Shown here piece after piece: positions 2,163 to 49,649 of a stretch of DNA of 64,000 bases (positions are counted from its first letter, which is position 1; each line of letters starts with the position of its first letter). Location: positions 76,635 through 140,634 of the forward strand of contig JABJOE010000009.1 of NCBI GenBank assembly GCA_018664485.1. Direction: 5' to 3'. The notes below the pieces were generated by a model. The model saw only the letters and a program-made list of their open reading frames with translations, was not told the DNA's origin and did no database searches. This DNA is from Candidatus Uhrbacteria bacterium. GTDB taxonomy: Bacteria > Patescibacteriota > Patescibacteriia > UBA9934. The position numbers and the translations under genes were made by a program.

Positions 2163-4022
2163 CTACTGTGGATCACCCAAAATAGCCTTTATTCGGCGTA
2201 CTCCGGCTGACGAAGCCTGCTCCTTTTTTATCTTAAATTGGCCAAGTTCTGAAGTATTTTCAACATGAGGCCCTCCGCAGATCTCTTTTGAGTAATCTCC
2301 CACAAAATACACCTTAACCTTCCCTTCCATCTGTGCATACTTATCCTCAAATAATCCAATAGCTCCACGCTCTTTTGCTTCATCGACACCCAATAGCTCA
2401 AAATGGACCGGATAAGCAGCCTTAATTTGCTCATTTACAAGCCTTTCAACCTCGACCTTTTCCTCATCTGTCATCTTCTCATCATGTGAGAAATCAAAAC
2501 GAAGGCGTTCTTTGGTGATATTCGATCCACGCTGTGCAACATGATCACCTAAAACAGTACGCAGAGCCTGATGCAGCAAATGTGTAGCTGTATGCAAACG
2601 AGTAGATTCAGCAGAATCATCGGCTAAACCACCCTTAAACTTCTGTTGAGCACCTGCACGTGACAGGTCCTTATGCTTCTGAAACTCTTTCTTGAACATT
2701 TCACGATCTACATCTTGCCCCTCTTCCTGCGCAAGTTCTTCGGTTAGCTCAAGCGGAAATCCGTATGTCTGGTACAAATCGAATGCATCTTTTCCAGAAA
2801 TACTTCCACTCTTATCCCAAACCTTCTTAAACTCTCGGAGACCTTTCTCAAGAGTTTTAGCAAATTTTATTTCCTCTTTTTCTATTTCATCCAGGATTTT
2901 TTCGGATAACTCTGGATATGCTTCCTTATATGTTTCAATATAAGTCTTTGCAACGGCACTTAGAAGTGAATCTCTTACCCCAAGCTGACGAGCAAACCGA
3001 ACCGAACGCCTAAGCAATCGTCGAACAAAATAGCCCTGATCCTTATTAGCAGGGAAAACATTATCTCCTATAAGAAAAGTTGCAGCGCGGACATGGTCAA
3101 GAATTACTCGAAAAGCATAAGTATCCTTAATATCATCTCCATAGACCCTACCACTCACCTGCTCGATAACTTTCTTTGCACCATCGAATAGATCTGTCAT
3201 GAACACATCTGGCGCATCAAGCTTTGCTGCCAAAATACGCTCTAATCCACCTCCAAAATCTACATTTTTGTTTGGCAAGGATTCAAAACCGTCATCCGTC
3301 TTCTGATACTCCATGAAAACATTGTTCCCTATCTCAATGAAGCGGCCGCATTCACAAGTAACCTGACAGTGCTCACCCTTCCATTGCGAAGACTCGTGCA
3401 AACCGTGATGCTCACCAAAGTCCCAGAACATCTCTGAATCTGGACCACCCGGCTCACCACTAGGCATATTTTCTGGCATACCAGTGCGAGACCACCAATT
3501 TTCTTTTTCATCATAGTAAAAAATTCGACCTCCCTGCATACCGTTACTCTCCGCATCATCAACAATCTTTGCATCAACACCAACTTCAGTAAATTTATTT
3601 TGCCAATGCCCTGCCGAAACTTCGTCTCGATCAATCTTACTATTACCACTAAATACCGTAACGTATAAACGCGATGCATCAAGTCCAACCTCCTTTATGA
3701 GAAAATCAAACATCCACGGAATCTGTTCATCTTTAAAATAATCTCCCAAAGACCAGTTTCCCAACATTTCAAAAAACGTTGTGTGACGATTGTCCCCCAC
3801 TTCTTCAATATCTTGTGACCGAAAACACTTCTGAGAATCCGTAATTCGATTACCTGACGCATGTTCTTCACCTAGTAAATATGGAACCATGGGCTGCATA
3901 CCAGACCCAGTAAAGAGCGTCGTTGGATCATTCTCTGGAACCAAAGAAGCGGAAGGAATCTCCGAATGCCCCTTCTCTTTGAAGAAGTCTAAATACTTTC
4001 GCCGTAATTCATTTGCTTTCAT
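2163..4022 (-). CDS. alaS: alanine--tRNA ligase, short form (catalytic plus editing domains, no C-Ala domain)
   Basis: Class II AlaRS motifs at the N-terminus. Editing-domain HxxxH (HTATHLLH) and CGGPH motifs near the C-terminus. 619 aa against about 875 aa for full-length AlaRS. Confidence 0.9.
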   Translation of the reverse strand: MKANELRRKYLDFFKEKGHSEIPSASLVPENDPTTLFTGSGMQPMVPYLLGEEHASGNRITDSQKCFRSQDIEEVGDNRHTTFFEMLGNWSLGDYFKDEQIPWMFDFLIKEVGLDASRLYVTVFSGNSKIDRDEVSAGHWQNKFTEVGVDAKIVDDAESNGMQGGRIFYYDEKENWWSRTGMPENMPSGEPGGPDSEMFWDFGEHHGLHESSQWKGEHCQVTCECGRFIEIGNNVFMEYQKTDDGFESLPNKNVDFGGGLERILAAKLDAPDVFMTDLFDGAKKVIEQVSGRVYGDDIKDTYAFRVILDHVRAATFLIGDNVFPANKDQGYFVRRLLRRSVRFARQLGVRDSLLSAVAKTYIETYKEAYPELSEKILDEIEKEEIKFAKTLEKGLREFKKVWDKSGSISGKDAFDLYQTYGFPLELTEELAQEEGQDVDREMFKKEFQKHKDLSRAGAQQKFKGGLADDSAESTRLHTATHLLHQALRTVLGDHVAQRGSNITKERLRFDFSHDEKMTDEEKVEVERLVNEQIKAAYPVHFELLGVDEAKERGAIGLFEDKYAQMEGKVKVYFVGDYSKEICGGPHVENTSELGQFKIKKEQASSAGVRRIKAILGDPQ

Positions 4023-4147
4023 AATAGAGCCATCGTAGCCGATTTACCCTGTATGATCAAATAAAAATACAGCCGACAATTAATGATCGGCCGCCAATTT
4101 ATCTTAATTTTTGAGTTCTCAGAGATCGTCCATGACGAGCTCATTCA

Positions 4148-5753: not shown

Positions 5754-6170
5754 TTATTTTACTGGCGGTCGAAGGAAGCGCTGATCAACCATTTTTTTGT
5801 ACTTTTCAGTTGACAGTTCTTCGTATGTGAGCTGAGTCGGGTAAACAATCCCCTCACAGATACTAGCAGCCTCCTGCTGTCCAGCAATCCGCAACAGGAG
5901 CTCTCTTCGATCGTCTGCGAGTGTGACGTGGTAGCCACCTCTCACGTCCAACCAATAGACAGTGTCACCTTCCTCATCATCAAAGTAAGCCAGAATTCCT
6001 GCAAAGAATCCGTACTCGACGTCATTGAGGACATTGTCAGGATCCTTCACCTTTCCGTACCTGTACTCCGTTCCTTTTGGGGCCCCGCAGCACCTTCCGT
6101 CCAGTGCGAAGATCCATTCTTTTCCGGTGATGATGACCTTGATCAGGTCACTAGATGTGCTATCGGGCAT
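5754..6170 (-). CDS. hypothetical protein, GC-rich cassette D (138 aa)
   Basis: ORF 5754..6293 trimmed to MPDSTSSDLIK..., which follows the leader repeat (…GTAAAGAG ATG). No recognisable family. Confidence 0.5.
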   Translation of the reverse strand: MPDSTSSDLIKVIITGKEWIFALDGRCCGAPKGTEYRYGKVKDPDNVLNDVEYGFFAGILAYFDDEEGDTVYWLDVRGGYHVTLADDRRELLLRIAGQQEAASICEGIVYPTQLTYEELSTEKYKKMVDQRFLRPPVK

Positions 6171-14381: not shown

Positions 14382-14428
14382 AGGTTATAGGTTTCAAGTA
14401 TTAGGTTTTAGCGCCGATACCTAAAACT
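14382..14428. repeat. partial copy of the TAGGT-heptad palindromic (IVS-like) element
   Basis: GAGGTTATAGGTTTCAAGTATTAGGTTTTAG-cgccga-TACCTAAAAC. The left arm carries TAGGT heptads and the right arm is truncated. Confidence 0.3.
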
Positions 14429-14450
14429 CCGAGACTGATATAAACAGAAG

Positions 14451-14475
14451 AACCGTCCTTTCGGGCGGTTTTCTT
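14451..14475. terminator. bidirectional intrinsic terminator between convergent genes
   Basis: AACCGTCC-tttc-GGGCGGTT hairpin followed by TTTCTTATTCT. Confidence 0.6.
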
Positions 14476-14496
14476 ATTCTGAAAGTTCACCTTTTA

Positions 14497-16438: not shown

Positions 16439-16488
16439 GAACTCCTTCACCCTTCATTACCGATAAAAAGGTATTTTAATATCAATAT

Positions 16489-17709
16489 ATGAGACGAAGA
16501 GAATTTGGCAGTCCACCTCCAGAAGCCAAGGAACGAATTCGACCAGCTGTTTTAGCTGCACTAGTTTTTGGAGCGCTAAGCCTATCATCTGGAGAAGCAC
16601 GTGCCGACGCACCTTCTTTGGAAACTGGAAAAGATACCATCGAGGATATTGAAGGGGCTGCCGGAAATACTGACACACTTTTAAAAACTACAATCGACCA
16701 ATCAGCGCAAGAAGGTGAACGAATGGTTGAAGACGTTGAAAGCTCAGTACTTTCGACAGAAACTCTGATCGAAAAAACAATCGACCGCACAACCGCTGAG
16801 GGAGAAGCTGCTGCAGAAAAAGCTATTGATGAAGTTCTAGGTACTGCACTAGATTGTATTGGCGATGATTCTGCTGTTAGTGGAGTGAAAAAAATCCTCA
16901 TCACAGCCCAATCGCTCAACACACCTGATGGCCTTATGGGTGCTGCAAAAATCGCACAACAATGTGCCGACTTAAATGTAGAACTTGAACTCATAAAGAA
17001 GCACCCAAAGTGGAATCAAACCCTTCAGAATACAGCTAGCATTGGGTACCAGATTGTAATTGGTAACCCGATGGGGGCTGCCGATTCAGCAATTGGCAAC
17101 TTAAAAGAAAGAGGAACTAAACTCAGAGCCCTAAAGCTCTCTCCTGAAGCAGGTAATGCGTTAAACAGCATCGATGAGAAAGGTGAACAAATAAGTAGCG
17201 AAGTAGATAACGTTAACGAGACTGATTCAGAAACATTTGGCAAAGACCCTCAATGGGCAAAGTCTCTTTCCTTTGGGATCTCTAAAGATCTTGATACTTC
17301 AAGTATTGGAAGCGTTAAAGATGATCTTGCTAAAACTGGAATAAGTGCTAAAGACCTTCTCAACGCTCAAGCATATTCAGTCGGATTCTCACTAGAAAGA
17401 GATTTAGTAGACAACGGCCTGCAACTTGAGTTCAATGGCTCGCTAGTAGGTTCTCGGCAAGGGAAGGAATTTAATGGTCTTGCTGGATATCTCCAAGGAG
17501 GTATCGACCCAGGTGGAACAGTGCTGGGCCGCGACATAAGTACAGGTGGGCTTATTGGATACGGAACAGAAGGACTTGAAGCTGGAGGTTATTTACAATT
17601 CGACTCTGGAAGCTCTGCTGTGAAAGCCATCACAACGATCGACGATGATGGGAAGATTGGAGCGAGAGTAAGCTACCAAGTACAATTCGGACTAGAGAAA
17701 AAAACATAG
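16489..17709 (+). CDS. hypothetical secreted protein
   Basis: Signal peptide (…ALSLSSGEARA). Ser/Thr/Glu-rich repeats. No family recognised. The antisense ORF 16482..16994 is low-complexity and judged spurious. Confidence 0.55.
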   Translation: MRRREFGSPPPEAKERIRPAVLAALVFGALSLSSGEARADAPSLETGKDTIEDIEGAAGNTDTLLKTTIDQSAQEGERMVEDVESSVLSTETLIEKTIDRTTAEGEAAAEKAIDEVLGTALDCIGDDSAVSGVKKILITAQSLNTPDGLMGAAKIAQQCADLNVELELIKKHPKWNQTLQNTASIGYQIVIGNPMGAADSAIGNLKERGTKLRALKLSPEAGNALNSIDEKGEQISSEVDNVNETDSETFGKDPQWAKSLSFGISKDLDTSSIGSVKDDLAKTGISAKDLLNAQAYSVGFSLERDLVDNGLQLEFNGSLVGSRQGKEFNGLAGYLQGGIDPGGTVLGRDISTGGLIGYGTEGLEAGGYLQFDSGSSAVKAITTIDDDGKIGARVSYQVQFGLEKKT

Positions 17710-38649: not shown

Positions 38650-40230
38650 TCATGATAGCTCCTCCTTCTTCTCTTTTACAAATTCAAACCATTCTTCCGT
38701 GAAGCGTACAGCAACTTTGTATGGAGCCTCAATAATGAAGTCGAAGAAATAGATAAAGACATTCACCTTTGCAACCTTCACAGATAACCATCGTCCTGCA
38801 CGCACTATTGGAAGCATTAGAAGGTCAAACATTGAACCGATGATACCGCGGCGGGACTTTGAAAGTATAATATCCCTTGTAAGCCCACGAATGCGAATTC
38901 CAAAGAATGTTACAAGCGACAGGAAGAACAAGAACAATGCAATAGAAAAAGCATTGAAACCAAGCTTATGCAAGAAAAATGCGATAGCACCGTATATAAC
39001 AAAGAACAATAGAGAATATACTACCGCAAAAATCTGCTTCCACGCACCGAATCTATTGACTTGCACCTTAACATTCAACATATCGTGGCTCGCACCTACT
39101 ACAAGAGCGCGTGCTGCTGACTTATAGTCCTCAGCATTACGACGTTCCGGCAAAGTTACAGTAAGTCCTATGATGGCCAAGAAGATCGGGTGGAATAAAA
39201 TATTTACAATAAGTGGAACTATAAATAGCTCACCATGTACAAGTAAGTCGTATGGAATCTCGAGTATCAGAGCTAAGAACATCTTTGTTATGAACAAAAA
39301 TGCTACTGCCCGCACAACCGTTCTCCGTAAACGTTTTCGGAATGTACTAGTCTGTACTTTTAACCTCTTCCACATTGCACGACCTAACAAATCCGGTTCC
39401 TGTGTAACATACCCCTCAAACTCATGTGGAAAATTTTCAATGACATCCAGCAACACGCGGAACAATCCAGCCTTACGACGAACGCGATGAGTAAGCTTCT
39501 CAGTCAACCAATGCTCAATCTGCAAATCAACGGTCGCTATTACAGTTTCTAGATTTTGTGCAATCTCCAAAATTCGAGCCCGCGATGATGCGCCAACCCA
39601 ATCCGGATAATACAGTGTCATCAACCTGTAACGAAGTGTTGCATGGTTAGATTTGAGTAATGTCTTGTGGCATGCAACGAAAAGTCTAATGTCCCTATCC
39701 TCTTCACTTACATCAAGTTTAGTATCCCACGCGGTTCTCTTCTTTAACTCCTCATACATGTAACTTGCCATGTACTCCTCTCTATCATGCGAAATCAATG
39801 TATATTCAACTTCTGTCGACAATACATCTAACACCCATGTCATTGCATATTCTGGGTTTGATGTCTTCTGAGCTGCGTCAAAGATTGGTCCGTACTTTAA
39901 AAAGACTGGTTTTAAATCGTTAATAAATGATGTTGGGACCTGCTTATTTGGAAGATATTTTGCCCAAACAAGTTCCTGCAATAAAAGTGATGCCATGTCT
40001 TCCAGAACCGTATCGGAACCCAAATACCTACGCAATATTCGCGTAATGGCATTCCGTCTAAGAAGATGCTCTTCCTGATATTCAAGCGTTGTACGAACAC
40101 GTTCATACAGTGCTGCGGCAGTAGATGCCGGAACACTAACCTCAATAGTCTCCTCCCCATCACCTTCAGGTGGAACCATTGGTTTTGAGCCGATAATAGC
40201 TTGGCCGATTTGTGAGAGTCGATTGGACAT
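38650..40230 (-). CDS. hypothetical membrane protein (about 270-aa cytosolic N-domain plus about 6 TM helices)
   Basis: Hydrophobic C-terminal half; no recognisable catalytic motif. Confidence 0.5.
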   Translation of the reverse strand: MSNRLSQIGQAIIGSKPMVPPEGDGEETIEVSVPASTAAALYERVRTTLEYQEEHLLRRNAITRILRRYLGSDTVLEDMASLLLQELVWAKYLPNKQVPTSFINDLKPVFLKYGPIFDAAQKTSNPEYAMTWVLDVLSTEVEYTLISHDREEYMASYMYEELKKRTAWDTKLDVSEEDRDIRLFVACHKTLLKSNHATLRYRLMTLYYPDWVGASSRARILEIAQNLETVIATVDLQIEHWLTEKLTHRVRRKAGLFRVLLDVIENFPHEFEGYVTQEPDLLGRAMWKRLKVQTSTFRKRLRRTVVRAVAFLFITKMFLALILEIPYDLLVHGELFIVPLIVNILFHPIFLAIIGLTVTLPERRNAEDYKSAARALVVGASHDMLNVKVQVNRFGAWKQIFAVVYSLLFFVIYGAIAFFLHKLGFNAFSIALFLFFLSLVTFFGIRIRGLTRDIILSKSRRGIIGSMFDLLMLPIVRAGRWLSVKVAKVNVFIYFFDFIIEAPYKVAVRFTEEWFEFVKEKKEELS

Positions 40231-40238
40231 GTGTTGTT

Positions 40239-40690
40239 TTAGGGATTAGGGATTAGGTGTTAGGTATCAAAACTCATCAGAGACCAGCTTTCAATGAACG
40301 GATTGAGCTATTTAACATCTTCATAACCTCAGTAAGTGACCCCAATAACGGGTTGACACCGTCATCGTCAACAAACTTTAAACGTTTTGCGATCTCTATC
40401 TGTGTTTCCAATTCTGACCCTGAAGCATACGCAATATAAACAAAACGCAGAAATTCTTTTCTGGAGCCCCTGCCACGTCCCTCTGCAATATTAGAGGGAA
40501 TAGAAACGGCGCATCTCCTCATCTGTGATATAAGTCCATATTGTTCTTCTTTGGGGAAACTCGCAGTCATACGATAGACCGATACCACTAAGTCCATTGC
40601 CTTTTGCCACATGACTAAATCTTTATAACTCTTCACCTCCATACCTATAAGATAGTGTCTATCACCTAATACCTGATACCTATAACCTGA
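40239..40690. mobile_element. IVS-like element: long imperfect inverted repeat of TAGGT heptads enclosing a four-helix-bundle protein gene
   Basis: Left arm TTAGGGATTAGGGATTAGGTGTTAGGTATCA (40239-40270). Right arm TGATACCTATAACCTGA region (40661-40690). The arms are reverse-complementary with wobble pairs and abut the ORF stop and start. Confidence 0.45.
40277..40642 (-). CDS. four-helix-bundle protein (23S rRNA intervening-sequence protein family; Avd-like)
   Basis: 121 aa; …VYRMTASFPKEEQYGLISQMRRCAVSIPSNIAEG… is the hallmark block of the PF05635/TIGR02436 family. Confidence 0.8.
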   Translation of the reverse strand: MEVKSYKDLVMWQKAMDLVVSVYRMTASFPKEEQYGLISQMRRCAVSIPSNIAEGRGRGSRKEFLRFVYIAYASGSELETQIEIAKRLKFVDDDGVNPLLGSLTEVMKMLNSSIRSLKAGL

Positions 40691-40693
40691 CCA

Positions 40694-41416
40694 CTAAAAG
40701 AAGGTTCTGTCTTTTGAGCCCTTGATAAGGTTAAAAGCCTCCTCTCCTGAATCAACAATTTTTACAAGATCCAAGTCCTCCGGGGAGATCGTTTCAAACT
40801 CCTCCGCCATTGTCTCTTTGACCCACGAGAATAAGCCGTTCCAATAGTCTTTACCGATTAAAATAACTGGGATCGTTTCAGATTTCCCTGTCTGAATGAG
40901 TGTAAGGATTTCAAACAACTCATCCATTGTTCCAAATCCACCAGGCATATATACATACGCCTGAGCAGAAGCTGCAAGCATCACTTTTCTGGTGAAGAAA
41001 TAATGAAATCCCAATCCCTTGTTTACAAAAGGATTTAAACTCTGCTCCATTGGTAATTGAATGTTCATTCCAACAGAAATACCACCACCTTCGTGTGCAC
41101 CTTTATTTGCCGCTTCCATCATTCCGCCGCCACCTCCTGTAACGACAGTAAAGTCATTCTCTGCCAGTAAGCGTCCAAGAGTAACTGCTTCTCCGTACCA
41201 CTTACTAGTCGGAGCGGTACGTGCAGATCCAAAGATGGTCACCTCGCGTTTGAGCGTAGAGAGGAACTGAAAACCTTCCACGAACTCAGCCATTATTCGA
41301 AAAATCCTCCAAGTGATGTCTGACATCTTTGGTGGTTCTCCCGCCTGTTTTTTTGACTCAATTTCATCCGCGGCTAAAGGAATGCGGCAAATATCTTCTT
41401 GATGTTTTTTTCCCAT
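40694..41416 (-). CDS. LOG-family protein (cytokinin riboside 5'-monophosphate phosphoribohydrolase-like)
   Basis: GGGxGxMEAANKGA and PGGFGTMDE motifs. Confidence 0.8.
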   Translation of the reverse strand: MGKKHQEDICRIPLAADEIESKKQAGEPPKMSDITWRIFRIMAEFVEGFQFLSTLKREVTIFGSARTAPTSKWYGEAVTLGRLLAENDFTVVTGGGGGMMEAANKGAHEGGGISVGMNIQLPMEQSLNPFVNKGLGFHYFFTRKVMLAASAQAYVYMPGGFGTMDELFEILTLIQTGKSETIPVILIGKDYWNGLFSWVKETMAEEFETISPEDLDLVKIVDSGEEAFNLIKGSKDRTFF

Positions 41417-41481: not shown

Positions 41482-41859
41482 CTAGTCAGTGTACTCTCTA
41501 ATCTTTTTAATTACGGTTTCAAGTGTCGTATCCGATTTTACAATATAATCAACTACGCCAAGTGTTTTCGCCCTATCAACATCAGTAACCTGACCTAAGT
41601 TAGTAAGCATTATTACAGGTATATCCTTAAGCTCATCATCTTCTCTCATAGCATCGAGCACGCCAAACCCATCTAACTTTGGCATGATAATATCCAACAA
41701 AACCAGAACGGGTTTTCGTGAACGCATCAACTCTAAACCAATTTCACCATTCTCAGCTACTTCAGCAACAAAGCCTTCTTTATCGAGCTTTGTATTGTAT
41801 ATATTCGCTAAAAACTTGTCGTCTTCAACAATAAGAACATATTTTTTTGAATCCTCCAT
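41482..41859 (-). CDS. single-domain response regulator (receiver only)
   Basis: LIVEDD; phospho-Asp LLDIIMP; T and K positions present. No output domain. Confidence 0.8.
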   Translation of the reverse strand: MEDSKKYVLIVEDDKFLANIYNTKLDKEGFVAEVAENGEIGLELMRSRKPVLVLLDIIMPKLDGFGVLDAMREDDELKDIPVIMLTNLGQVTDVDRAKTLGVVDYIVKSDTTLETVIKKIREYTD

Positions 41860-41862
41860 ACA

Positions 41863-42285
41863 TTAGGCGATCGCCCCCTGCAGATCAGTTGCGGGCAACT
41901 CAATTATTAACTTCACTCTAGAAATAATATCAGTCAATCTATGTTCAGCTTTCACAAAGAATACAGTAGCTTCAAGTTCAAAAGCCTGAGCCACTACCTC
42001 CTCTGATCCTACATTTGAAACAATCACAACTGCAATATGCTTCCATTTTGAGTTTGCACGAACTCGTTTCAAAAAATCTATTCCACTCATTCCGGGTAAC
42101 ATAACATCAAGCCAAATTAGATCAAAAGATCCACCACCCTCTAACTTCTCGAGCGCCTTTTCAGCTGTAACAACAGTCACCACTTCAAAACCCTCTTGCT
42201 TCAGCTTCCTTGAAACCGCTGATTGCAACGGGACCTCATCCTCTACAACTAGAATCCTTTTTGTCTCGTTTTTTGAAATGGCCAT
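41863..42285 (-). CDS. single-domain response regulator (receiver only)
   Basis: LVVEDE; IWLDVMLPGMSG. Confidence 0.8.
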   Translation of the reverse strand: MAISKNETKRILVVEDEVPLQSAVSRKLKQEGFEVVTVVTAEKALEKLEGGGSFDLIWLDVMLPGMSGIDFLKRVRANSKWKHIAVVIVSNVGSEEVVAQAFELEATVFFVKAEHRLTDIISRVKLIIELPATDLQGAIA

Positions 42286-42287
42286 AA

Positions 42288-42614
42288 TTATTTATCAAGT
42301 ATTTTTTTTATCTTTTCTATCGTATTATCCAAAGACACTTCTGCTTTTACAAAAAAGTATGTCTTACCATCCTCAAGATAATCCTCATAAGCTTTCTCAT
42401 CTGAAGTATTTGTAACTACAAATACCGGAATATTTTTCCAATTATCACTATTCCTTATGTTTTTTAAAACCTCCAAACCATTCATGTTTGGCAAATAGTG
42501 ATCCAGCCAAATTACAGAAGGTGAAGGGTCTAGGTGATCCAAATAATCTAATGCTTGAGCACCATCCCGAGCAGTCACAACATCAAACCCAGAAATACCG
42601 AACTTCCGCACCAT
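42288..42614 (-). CDS. N-terminally truncated or atypical receiver domain protein
   Basis: Phospho-Asp (VIWLDHYLP), T and K are present. The beta1 acidic pair is missing and there is a stop 8 codons upstream in frame. Confidence 0.45.
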   Translation of the reverse strand: MVRKFGISGFDVVTARDGAQALDYLDHLDPSPSVIWLDHYLPNMNGLEVLKNIRNSDNWKNIPVFVVTNTSDEKAYEDYLEDGKTYFFVKAEVSLDNTIEKIKKILDK

Positions 42615-48271: not shown

Positions 48272-48441
48272 ATCAACAGTATTAAGTGCAGACATATTAG
48301 CACGCTACAGCCTACCGGGCTAATACCGCCGAATGCACAAAACTCCGGCCCTTGAGAGAGCGCGGAGTTGAGAGTGGTAGAGGTGATGTAACTCTAGAAA
48401 AAGCTCCACGTAGAAGCACGTTCTAGAGTTGCACCGGTCAA

Positions 48442-49161
48442 TCACTGGTCGGGGTCTGCTTCGTCAGTCAGGTCAACGAATGGCATGTCGTCGCGGTGCG
48501 CGACCATGATGACGCGACCGTCCTCGTACTCACAGGCCACAGAGTAGTTCATTCCCAAGTACCAACGGTATGCAGGAGAGGCTCTCTTTGTACGAGCTAC
48601 AAATACCTTGAGACCGGCCATTGCCAACTTCCGGTAGCGAGCACGGAACAGGCGTTTGCCAATGCCGTTGGACCAGAGACGTTCAAGAACGAAGATCTCG
48701 TCCTGGTAAGCCACGTGCCCTTCTTCAGGATACCTTCGGTTTAGAAATTCTGCGATCTTTTCATGCCCGGTGGTTCGCTGTACACGACTGGGACGCAGAG
48801 CATATCCCCACGTACCCCCCACTACACCAGGCTTTCCGTCCTGTGTAGCGACAACACAAACCGCGTGCGGATTTTGCATTTGCTTGTGGAGATCAGCGAG
48901 AACATCACTAGCAGGCCAATACGGCACAACGAGTCCGCTACACTTCGGGCAACTCCCATGTGCCGGTGGGCTATCAAGTGGCCAAACGTACGAGCTGCCG
49001 TTGCTCTTGCAGTTTGTACACTTCCACCCCTCATTCCAAGGAGATCCTCCAAATACCCAGGTGTAGCATGTGATGACGTCAGACGCCAAGTCACACACAA
49101 CTGCTTTTTTCTCACCAGCAAGAGGTAAGTACCTGATGCGAATATCCTCAATCAATGCCAT
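48442..49161 (-). CDS. hypothetical protein in a GC-rich island (Cys-rich zinc-ribbon-like segment plus possible GNAT-like C-terminus)
   Basis: Start trimmed to MALIEDIRIR after a GGAGAGG SD. CTNCK...CPKCSG. IGKRLF...AGLKVFV resembles acetyltransferase motif A. GC clearly elevated. Confidence 0.45.
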   Translation of the reverse strand: MALIEDIRIRYLPLAGEKKAVVCDLASDVITCYTWVFGGSPWNEGWKCTNCKSNGSSYVWPLDSPPAHGSCPKCSGLVVPYWPASDVLADLHKQMQNPHAVCVVATQDGKPGVVGGTWGYALRPSRVQRTTGHEKIAEFLNRRYPEEGHVAYQDEIFVLERLWSNGIGKRLFRARYRKLAMAGLKVFVARTKRASPAYRWYLGMNYSVACEYEDGRVIMVAHRDDMPFVDLTDEADPDQ

Positions 49162-49284
49162 GGCCTCTCCTGCGTTACAGGGTTTGCGGTTGATGTGAGT
49201 TTCTCGAATTGAGAAACGGTAAAAGAACACATTTCATATAAACACAAAAATCCCCATATGTCCAGGAGGACTTTACATGGAAAC

Positions 49285-49367
49285 TTAGGTGGTAGGTATT
49301 AGGTACTAGGTTTTAGGCAGGTAACTCATCGCTGATACTTATAACCTAATACCTAGAACCTATAACC
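49285..49367. repeat. empty-site copy of the TAGGT-heptad IVS-like palindrome (no ORF)
   Basis: TTAGGTGGTAGGTATTAGGTACTAGGTTTTAGG - caggtaactcatcgctgatac - TTATAACCTAATACCTAGAACCTATAACC. The loop retains AACTCATC, as found next to the ORF stop in the full copy. Confidence 0.5.
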
Positions 49368-49649
49368 TTTCGAGCGTGCAGAGTGGGTAATGCGGTCGCT
49401 CGCAAAGCCCCGACCTCTGCGAACAGCCATGTTCCAGATTCAATCAAAAGAATGTTTGTACTAAACCATGTCTGTTCACTAAGCCCAGGTTCTTGTAATT
49501 AGTTATGTTCTTGATTTATTTGGATGAATATTTAGACGAAATGGATGACAGGCAAGGAAGCATAGCAGAGCTACGCTGACGAGCCTGGAGTGCATTGCAG
49601 TCAAATATACGACAAATAGATCAGAACGATAACTGATTTCAATAACCCC

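Follow-up and report, generated by a model that had tools for sequence, protein, structure and literature searches.

To our knowledge, the function of the protein family encoded within ribosomal intervening sequences (IVSs) has been unknown since 1993, and the excess of heptanucleotide repeats in bacterial genomes is likewise unexplained. The 23S rRNA IVS of Coxiella burnetii (428 nt) is closed by a 28-bp terminal stem that is cut by RNase III, and upstream of its open reading frame (ORF), which encodes a PF05635 (S23p) protein, it carries two to three tandem GACAGAT heptamers, the number varying between strains (PMC4990558). Pentameric PF05635 homologues are known (title of Lin et al. 2006), and Zhang 2013 gives GxxRxxxSxxxNxxE as the motif conserved on one helix face of the family. 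Genes for PF05635 proteins have been reported in rRNA insertions of candidate phyla radiation (CPR) bacteria (bioRxiv 2024.02.27.582315), as well as within cas operons, one of them separating cmr3 from cmr2 with gaps of 86 nt and 6 nt (PMC3936711). Tandem heptamers have also been described in Xanthomonas campestris. Rehm et al. 2015 (PMC4692102) list 186 GGGAATC arrays there, most of them with four units, and among these are 70 inverted pairs that converge, with the G-rich strand on the 5′ side. One of these arrays lies 6 nt after bccP and overlaps the annotated start of XCC0516 with four GGGAATC-type units, two of them exact (PMC4692102 supplement); XCC0516 is the crystallised PF05635 homologue, although the family goes unmentioned in that paper. 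Here we describe a 463-nt cassette in a 64,000-nt stretch of the genome of Candidatus Uhrbacteria bacterium (assembly GCA_018664485.1, contig JABJOE010000009.1, positions 76,635 to 140,634; hereafter the window, to which all unprefixed coordinates refer). It consists of a PF05635 gene enclosed by inverted arms of tandem heptamers and sits between two genes of an mRNA operon. We regard the element as an ORF-containing IVS of a new kind, located outside rRNA, and as one case of a stereotyped and very widespread cassette.

The gene (40277–40642, minus strand; PF05635/TIGR02436, '23S rRNA intervening sequence protein', four-helix bundle) ends in tandem stop codons, TGA TGA, and encodes a protein of 121 aa. 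This protein matches PF05635 (23S_rRNA_IVP) over all 106 profile positions (1–106; E = 1.7e-40, 138 bits against a cut-off of 33.8) and TIGR02436, 'four helix bundle protein', equally clearly (E = 9e-40, 135 bits, cut-off 24). Among structures in the PDB, it matches 2GSC, which is XCC0516 (E = 1.7e-23), and 2RLD (E = 7.5e-7), for each of which five chains were deposited. R43, S47, N51 and E54 of the helix-face motif are present and invariant among 26 relatives; the first motif position is Q40, not G. The Pfam matches of this sole ORF of the cassette are confined to PF05635 and bAvd, and no transposase family is among its profile matches. A link of the gene to a defence system was also considered and rejected, as PADLOC returned no defence-system match.

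In the sense of the gene, the 5′ arm (40663–40692, minus strand) reads GGTCAGG TTATAGG TATCAGG TATTAGG TG and is thus G-rich and C-poor; on the plus strand, it reads CACCTAA TACCTGA TACCTAT AACCTGA CC. A distance of 20 nt separates it from the start codon, and its outer end is 1 nt from the stop codon (40694–40696) of the upstream LOG gene. The C-rich 3′ arm (40239–40268, minus strand; plus strand TTAGGGA TTAGGGA TTAGGTG TTAGGTA TC) begins 8–10 nt from the PF05635 stop codon and ends 8 nt from the downstream ATG (40228–40230). A solitary heptad unit with the sense sequence TATAGGT (plus strand ACCTATA; 40643–40649, minus strand) directly abuts the ATG of the PF05635 gene and is included in a direct repeat, ATACCTATAA, found at 40641–40650 and 40676–40685. 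A first-pass annotation, made from the sequence of the window, had proposed arms of about 30 nt built of 7-nt units. Their length and period stand, but the heptads are imperfect and their variable position or positions are usually mismatched in the stem; the best inverted repeat between the arms covers 28 nt with 82% complementarity.

These arms are not part of a random intergenic background of heptad tracts. The motif TAGGTNNTAGGT, with at most one mismatch, occurs 15 times in the 64 kb against an expectation of 2.27, a number reached in none of 100 shuffled sequences, and 14 of the 15 occurrences fall within the cassette and two further sites, at 49285 and 14382. Period-7 runs of at least three AGG (or CCT) are confined, in the 64 kb, to 40241–40264/40665–40688 and 49287–49317/49345–49368, compared to a shuffle mean of 0.38, and both sites have an inverted partner. 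When a 481-nt sense transcript (40225–40705, minus strand) was folded, the arms were paired in the minimum-free-energy (MFE) as well as the centroid structure, with an ensemble expectation of about 24.5 arm–arm pairs and a sense arm duplex of −26.4 kcal/mol (z = −3.5). Together with the profile matches and the shuffle controls, this bears out the proposal of the first-pass annotation that a PF05635-type gene lies within inverted heptad arms that can form a stem holding the ORF in its loop. Its statement that no rRNA is nearby also proved correct, as neither rRNA, tRNA nor any other Rfam family was detected in the 64-kb window. Within the cassette, we found no promoter-like or terminator-like sites. 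A role of the arms themselves as terminator or promoter was rejected; they are devoid of a T-run.

Comparison with related operons identifies the cassette as an insertion. On the minus strand, it occupies the whole interval (40231–40693) from the stop codon of a LOG/SLOG family gene (PF03641 by Pfam match; 41416 to 40694) to the start codon of a gene for a 526-aa membrane protein (40230 to 38650), which has no Pfam match and served for the comparison of empty sites. At the orthologous junction of locus L086 (loci of the comparison set are numbered with the prefix L), just 3 nt separate the LOG stop from the downstream ATG (TAA-ACT-ATG); here the LOG C-terminus, ...RTFF*, recurs and the downstream protein is 65% identical. 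In L087, where the latter is 52% identical, the spacer measures 10 nt. Because these two metagenome relatives possess only 3 and 10 nt at the same junction, the 463-nt unit is an insertion, which to this extent bears out the first-pass picture of a small mobile hairpin element. Neither empty site has the arms, and arms and ORF were thus gained, or lost, as one block. The exact boundaries of the cassette are uncertain, since the flanking protein of the empty-site relatives is only 52–65% identical. That the cassette is no assembly artefact follows from its recurrence in nine other metagenome contigs from seven samples, all of them identical save for one 1-nt deletion. This deletion, in the metagenome variant L109:1501-1869, lies near the 3′ end of the PF05635 ORF and shifts the frame of the last residues, giving 122 instead of 121 aa.

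How general is this architecture? The PF05635 family is very large (7,997 of 8,000 scored candidates were matches), and we fetched a sample of 80 loci encoding proteins 46–64% identical to that of the window. They come from Patescibacteria, Bacteroidota, Ignavibacteriota, Planctomycetota, Acidobacteriota, Gemmatimonadota, Clostridia, Desulfobacterota, Gammaproteobacteria and others, with one archaeal metagenome-assembled genome (MAG). When the flanks were read directly, most of the 80 loci showed tandem heptamers upstream and their reverse complement downstream. For quantification, we used an arm score, defined as the highest-scoring inverted match, without gaps, that the two 90-nt flanks can form, with a threshold of at least 12 and controls of the same geometry taken elsewhere in the same loci. 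The threshold was reached by 76% of 78 PF05635 loci versus 0.7% of 574 shifted controls; the window arms score 18, and none of the 574 controls reached 14. When the 5′ arm of one locus was paired with the 3′ arm of another, just 5% scored 12 or more. Conservation of the arms around relatives was a point on which the first-pass annotation could have failed, and it withstood this test. Autocorrelation of the flanks peaks at lags of 7, 14 and 21 (0.41 and 0.40 versus 0.27 in controls), with a minor peak at 8 and 16 that reflects a few loci with octamers. The arrays in the arms of relatives mostly comprise three to five units, with a median of four, and PF05635 genes on viral contigs have the same arms. 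Conserved 16S/23S rRNA motifs were found in none of the loci scanned for them, which included all 80 genome loci; copies in this sample thus normally lie outside rRNA. On this sequence evidence, the heptad-hairpin bracket is a hallmark of the whole PF05635 gene family.

Heptad arrays also occur at some distance from these genes. Such additional arrays, collected from 40 other loci, are built of the same unit as the nearby PF05635 arms in 44% of cases, compared to 4.8% across loci. Some are conspicuously long: a Planctomycetaceae contig (L064:3933-4157) contains about 30 GGTCAGT/GGGCAGT units 570 nt downstream, a Buchananbacteria contig (L007:3373-3450) more than ten CCTCCTAA octamers, and a Gemmatimonadaceae contig (L034:3404-3510) more than 15 GGGCGAC-type units. 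L024, the local PF05635 arms of which consist of AGGCAAT, holds a second, ORF-less family of heptad hairpins (AGTAGGA/CCTACTC) at 4017–4102 and 5842–5872 of that locus; its copies share an extra flank, TACTACGGCGTTAAATCAG, and look like dispersed copies of another element.

The heptamer itself varies widely between loci (TTAGCTN, TAGTGGT, CAGTGGA, AGGCAAT, GGGCGGC, GTGAAAA and others). Within a locus, the upstream unit and the reverse-complemented downstream unit differ by 1.2 positions on average, versus 3.25 between loci. Pairs of paralogues on the same contig (L029, L058, L081), which are 36–59% identical, possess different heptamers, so the heptamer belongs to the copy and not to the host genome. 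In seven Flavobacteriaceae loci (L028, L039, L047, L060, L068, L033, L041; positions ~2850–3450 of each), the cassette occupies one orthologous junction, between an upstream gene ending in ...FEENWN* and a downstream gene starting with MINLFNTHIE. In one of them, L068, both arms have changed together, from CAAAGG/CCTTTG to CTAAGG/CCTTAG, and its arms score 26 with each other versus 6–17 with the arms of other species. Because arms match within loci and those of L068 changed in concert, arm pairing is evidently maintained, by selection or by conversion between arms. Alignment-based covariation among five Flavobacterium orthologues did not add to this: four of 24 pairs were compensatory, with an unfavourable covariation term, and the repeat registers do not align.

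The arms have a fixed polarity. Wherever the arm duplex is significant (37 of 37 loci), it is the 5′ arm that is rich in G and poor in C (pooled unit composition G 139, T 123, A 107, C 51), and the only exceptions seen are two viral contigs, L097 and L102. Since the two strands of an inverted repeat read alike, this polarity is a property of the hairpin rather than of the gene, and it is common to the ORF-less hairpins seen in this study and the convergent pairs of Xanthomonas. In addition, 61% of the units contain a stop triplet, mostly TAG, compared to 45% for permuted letters (p = 0.0025), while high-GC units have no stops. In many copies, translation entering the arms from either side would therefore be halted whichever of the three frames it uses.

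Two further hairpins in the window are related to the cassette, as had been suggested. The first, at 49285–49369 (no strand assigned), has no ORF; its arms, at 49285–49318 (TTAGGTG GTAGGTA TTAGGTA CTAGGTT TTAGGC) and 49335–49369, contain five and four to five TAGGT-type units, respectively, and enclose a 16-nt loop. Its folding energy is −32 to −35 kcal/mol (z = −3.6 and −3.9). It aligns in a single orientation with both ends of the cassette: the left match continues for 8 nt past the arm into AACTCATC, the complement of the TGA-TGA stop region, which is retained in the loop, and the right side of the loop, GATACT, corresponds to GATAGT in the cassette. In the simplest reading, this hairpin would be an internal-deletion derivative of the ORF-bearing cassette. 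The second is a partial third copy (14382–14428, plus strand), made of a 30-nt 5′ arm (14382–14411), the sequence CGCC and a short 3′ arm, GATACCTAAAAC. With 27 of 30 positions of the arm identical to the cassette 5′ arm and a z-score of −3.2 for the fold, it is a real hairpin homologous to the cassette ends. Right after it, between convergent genes, a GC-rich stem followed by a T-run (GAACCGTCCTTTCGGGCGGTTTTCTT, 14448–14476) looks like an ordinary intrinsic terminator.

The surroundings of the ORF-less copy are suggestive of, and consistent with, an insertion, albeit less cleanly than those of the ORF-bearing copy. In relatives with a 63–67% identical M20 peptidase gene, an NTP-transferase gene follows 2–13 nt after the M20 gene; in the closest relative, L110 (81% identity in M20), a distantly related GNAT-like gene follows after a heptad-free spacer of 119 nt. 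The corresponding spacer in the window measures 419 nt and contains the hairpin. Compared to relatives, the window has an extra 1.35 kb here (48296–49649), made up of a GNAT-like gene for 262 aa, the ORF-less hairpin and 280 nt of non-coding DNA (49370–49649). Neither the hairpin nor this 280-nt neighbour belongs to an Rfam family, with just sub-threshold, miRNA-like matches obtained for them.

We consider it probable that the element is an IVS-type selfish cassette, residing in an mRNA operon rather than in 23S rRNA, with arms that pair in the read-through transcript. A unit comprising the PF05635 gene and its inverted arms, each with three to five tandem heptads, would have inserted in sense orientation into a spacer of a few nucleotides. 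Having neither promoter-like nor terminator-like sites of its own, the cassette probably depends on read-through from the host operon for its transcription. In this transcript, the arms are predicted to close a stem of about 25–30 bp with periodic mismatches, with the ORF as its loop and with a base that brings the upstream gene's stop codon next to the downstream gene's start codon. By analogy, the stem would most likely serve in one of two ways: it could be a substrate of RNase III like the stems of genuine 23S IVSs, or it could act as a structural insulator that holds the flanks together and thereby renders the insertion tolerable. ORF-less hairpins with the same heptamer would be deletion derivatives left at other sites. 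The number of units per arm fits both the 21-bp minimum for RNase III and an arrangement with one unit per subunit of a pentamer.

Several observations weigh against this interpretation of the element as a mobile, RNA-level cassette. No target-site duplication is visible at 40231/40693, boundaries that the divergent empty-site relatives leave imprecise. Because the same-contig paralogues are as diverged as described and differ in their heptamers, we see no recent transposition of ORF-bearing copies, and the shared Flavobacteriaceae junction indicates that the element is mostly inherited vertically, at least at the scale of a genus. Co-orientation with both neighbouring genes is not significantly above the baseline (75% versus 63%, p = 0.12). 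Selection acting specifically on the sense RNA is likewise not apparent: mismatches of the G-U type and of the A-C type are about equally frequent (59 versus 49, p = 0.39), the sense duplex is the more stable one in just 21 of 37 loci (p = 0.10), and in the window itself the antisense duplex, with −33.9 kcal/mol, surpasses the sense duplex. Selection on a DNA hairpin or cruciform would fit equally well. Moreover, the strict 7-nt periodicity and the polarity of the arms, with G on the 5′ side, are left unexplained by a simple substrate stem for RNase III. Transcription of the cassette, its cleavage by RNase III and its mobility are proposals.

Among the alternatives, the one we rate highest, though still as unlikely, is a system that is mobile at the DNA level, akin to repetitive extragenic palindromic (REP) sequences and their REP-associated tyrosine transposases (RAYTs). 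The PF05635 pentamer, or a host factor that it recruits, would then recognise the heptad arrays as cis sites, with the ORF-bearing hairpin as the 'autonomous' form and the ORF-less hairpins as non-autonomous ones, spread or maintained by it. The architecture is indeed that of a RAYT gene with inverted REPs, and each paralogue has its own heptamer, which some of the nearby ORF-less arrays share, two of them in the window. The Xanthomonas genome can be read in the same manner, with its many arrays, convergent pairs included, of the very unit that precedes XCC0516. About five conserved and two free positions per unit are as for a repeated binding site, a pentameric protein would go with three to five units per arm, and arm pairing shows no preference for a strand. 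Protein identity and heptamer similarity are also correlated (rho = −0.17, permutation p < 0.0005), but the correlation is small and confounded by taxonomy and GC content. What speaks against such a system is that no fold or motif of a nuclease or recombinase is known in PF05635 and no catalytic activity has been reported for it, that neither target-site duplications nor recent ORF-bearing duplicates were seen, and that inheritance is vertical at the one Flavobacteriaceae locus.

In a second alternative, which we regard as doubtful, the arms form an autoregulatory RNA switch. TRAP binds (G/U)AG repeats such that the RNA is wrapped around the protein ring; similarly, the PF05635 pentamer would bind four to five single-stranded heptads of its own 5′ arm, thereby competing with the stem and controlling how the cassette mRNA is translated or processed. 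Pentameric homologues exist, the homologous protein Avd reportedly binds RNA in diversity-generating retroelements (DGRs), the median of four units per arm would be suitable, and the units possess a conserved core plus spacer, with TAG (26 occurrences) and AGT (29) as the commonest triplets in 51 units. This proposal, however, is purely inferential, it leaves both the ORF-less hairpins and the matching 3′ arm without an explanation, and the Coxiella protein is seemingly not made.

We think it very improbable that the heptads act through formation of G-quadruplexes (G4s), in the manner of a telomere-like element. (GGGAATC)n is reported to fold into G4 in vitro (PMC4692102), the arms of the window hold at least four GG runs at 5-nt spacing, and the G-rich arm is always the 5′ one. 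However, GG is found in just 27 of 51 clear units of relatives and GGG in eight of 51, and the common units TTAGCTN, CAGTTGT and AGTAGTC are unable to form G4. In the window, the arms allow two tetrads at most, and these would face competition from a hairpin with an energy of −26 to −34 kcal/mol. The G4 idea of the first-pass annotation is therefore weak and certainly no family-wide principle, and its telomere analogy is a matter of resemblance only.

The same annotation had pointed to DGRs, and the gene might be a remnant or orphan of the accessory gene avd; we give this hardly any credence. The protein does match bAvd (PF22296, 28.8 bits), the Avd equivalog (NF033474, 26.6 bits) and the PHROG 'Avd protein of DGR' (2.8e-9), but these scores fall below the curated cut-offs of 40 and 80 bits, and PF05635 and TIGR02436 match far better. 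No reverse transcriptase (RT) family was matched among the 17 window ORFs scanned, two of which (the 526-aa gene and a 406-aa ORF at 16489–17709) are without a Pfam match, and template and variable repeats (TR/VR) were not searched specifically. The neighbours are housekeeping genes and the 463-nt insertion carries one gene only, leaving the proposed DGR link unsupported. That the hairpins are ordinary regulatory stem-loops of the host, coincidentally placed at the gene, can practically be dismissed: heptamer arrays are found away from PF05635 genes as well (also PMC4679880), but coincidence is contradicted by the controls of the arm score, by the absence of arms from empty sites and by the lack of a T-run terminator.

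For the preferred reading of an IVS-type cassette, the combined data suggest one widespread selfish element of which we found no description in the literature searched. A published statement of a general association between PF05635 and heptad hairpins was likewise not found, although a prior description is possible, as subscription journals were thinly covered. Most members of a very large gene family sit in a stereotyped heptad hairpin, the unit being gained as a block, and if this architecture is general, it ties the IVS protein family to the excess of heptanucleotide repeats. More tentatively, and against our own expectation rather than in line with it, PF05635 proteins and heptad hairpins could constitute one ancient, pan-bacterial selfish system, in which the pentamer binds, protects or propagates its own arrays. 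If so, ORF-less hairpins would be its non-autonomous progeny, comparable to the hairpin-forming REP doublets (REPINs) of RAYTs, and the polarity of the arms would be a footprint of the propagation mechanism. Such a system would also account for ORF-containing rRNA IVSs, for the heptanucleotide-repeat excess, as in the short tandemly repeated repetitive (STRR) sequences of cyanobacteria and the GGGAATC arrays of Xanthomonas, and for the many 'orphan' four-helix-bundle genes that sit inside operons, those of cas genes among them. For annotation, this entails a warning: PF05635 genes within cas or other operons may be selfish inserts and not functional partners. Published 'CRISPR-linked' 23S_rRNA_IVP genes (18 in cas loci; FLSHclust list) may be instances of the cassette at operon junctions.

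Two other features of the window were noted in passing. Upstream of the LOG gene and on the same strand, three consecutive genes (41482–42614) encode single-domain response-regulator receivers of 125, 140 and 108 aa. On the plus strand, 16482–17709 contains the 406-aa ORF without a Pfam match, which overlaps a 170-aa ORF on the opposite strand.

Among known systems, the DGR accessory protein Avd resembles the cassette protein as a homologous four-helix bundle and a pentamer, but the latter scores below the Avd equivalog cut-off, and the window scan yielded no RT. With MITEs (miniature inverted-repeat transposable elements) and their autonomous parents, the element has in common its terminal inverted repeats (TIRs), three copies in 64 kb, an ORF-less deleted copy and the existence of filled and empty sites; unlike MITEs, it has no recognisable transposase and no detected target-site duplication, and its TIRs are themselves tandem repeats. 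REP/RAYT systems with their REPINs likewise have a single small gene between inverted copies of a short repeat, and this repeat is also dispersed as hairpin-forming doublets and is specific in sequence to the gene lineage. However, the RAYT protein belongs to the Y1 (HUH) transposases, whereas the four-helix bundle PF05635 is not known to be catalytically active, and REPs are single palindromes, not tandem heptads.

A further likeness is to dispersed heptamer arrays, such as GGGAATC in Xanthomonas, the STRR-type GGGGA(T/C)T in Nostoc and TAACTGA in Beggiatoaceae, which are intergenic tandem heptamers of typically about four units with conserved and free positions in each unit. The cassette itself shows the features of an STRR-like array: intergenic tandem 7-nt units in convergent pairs, with the G-rich strand 5′. 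The difference lies in the fact that the respective papers treat the arrays as G4 or regulatory repeats, without a connection to PF05635, and that the Beggiatoa repeats are mostly direct rather than inverted (PMC4679880). From the 23S IVSs of Leptospira and Coxiella, the cassette differs in its host, an mRNA operon junction instead of helix 9, 25 or 45 of 23S rRNA, and excision by RNase III has been demonstrated for the rRNA copies only. Yet it encodes a protein of the same PF05635 family and, with 463 nt compared to 428–444 nt in Coxiella, has a similar size. Just like the Coxiella IVS, it possesses a long terminal stem (~28 bp), heptamers 5′ of the ORF and an ORF in the sense of the host transcript. 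The first-pass annotation was thus right in describing an IVS-like architecture outside rRNA.

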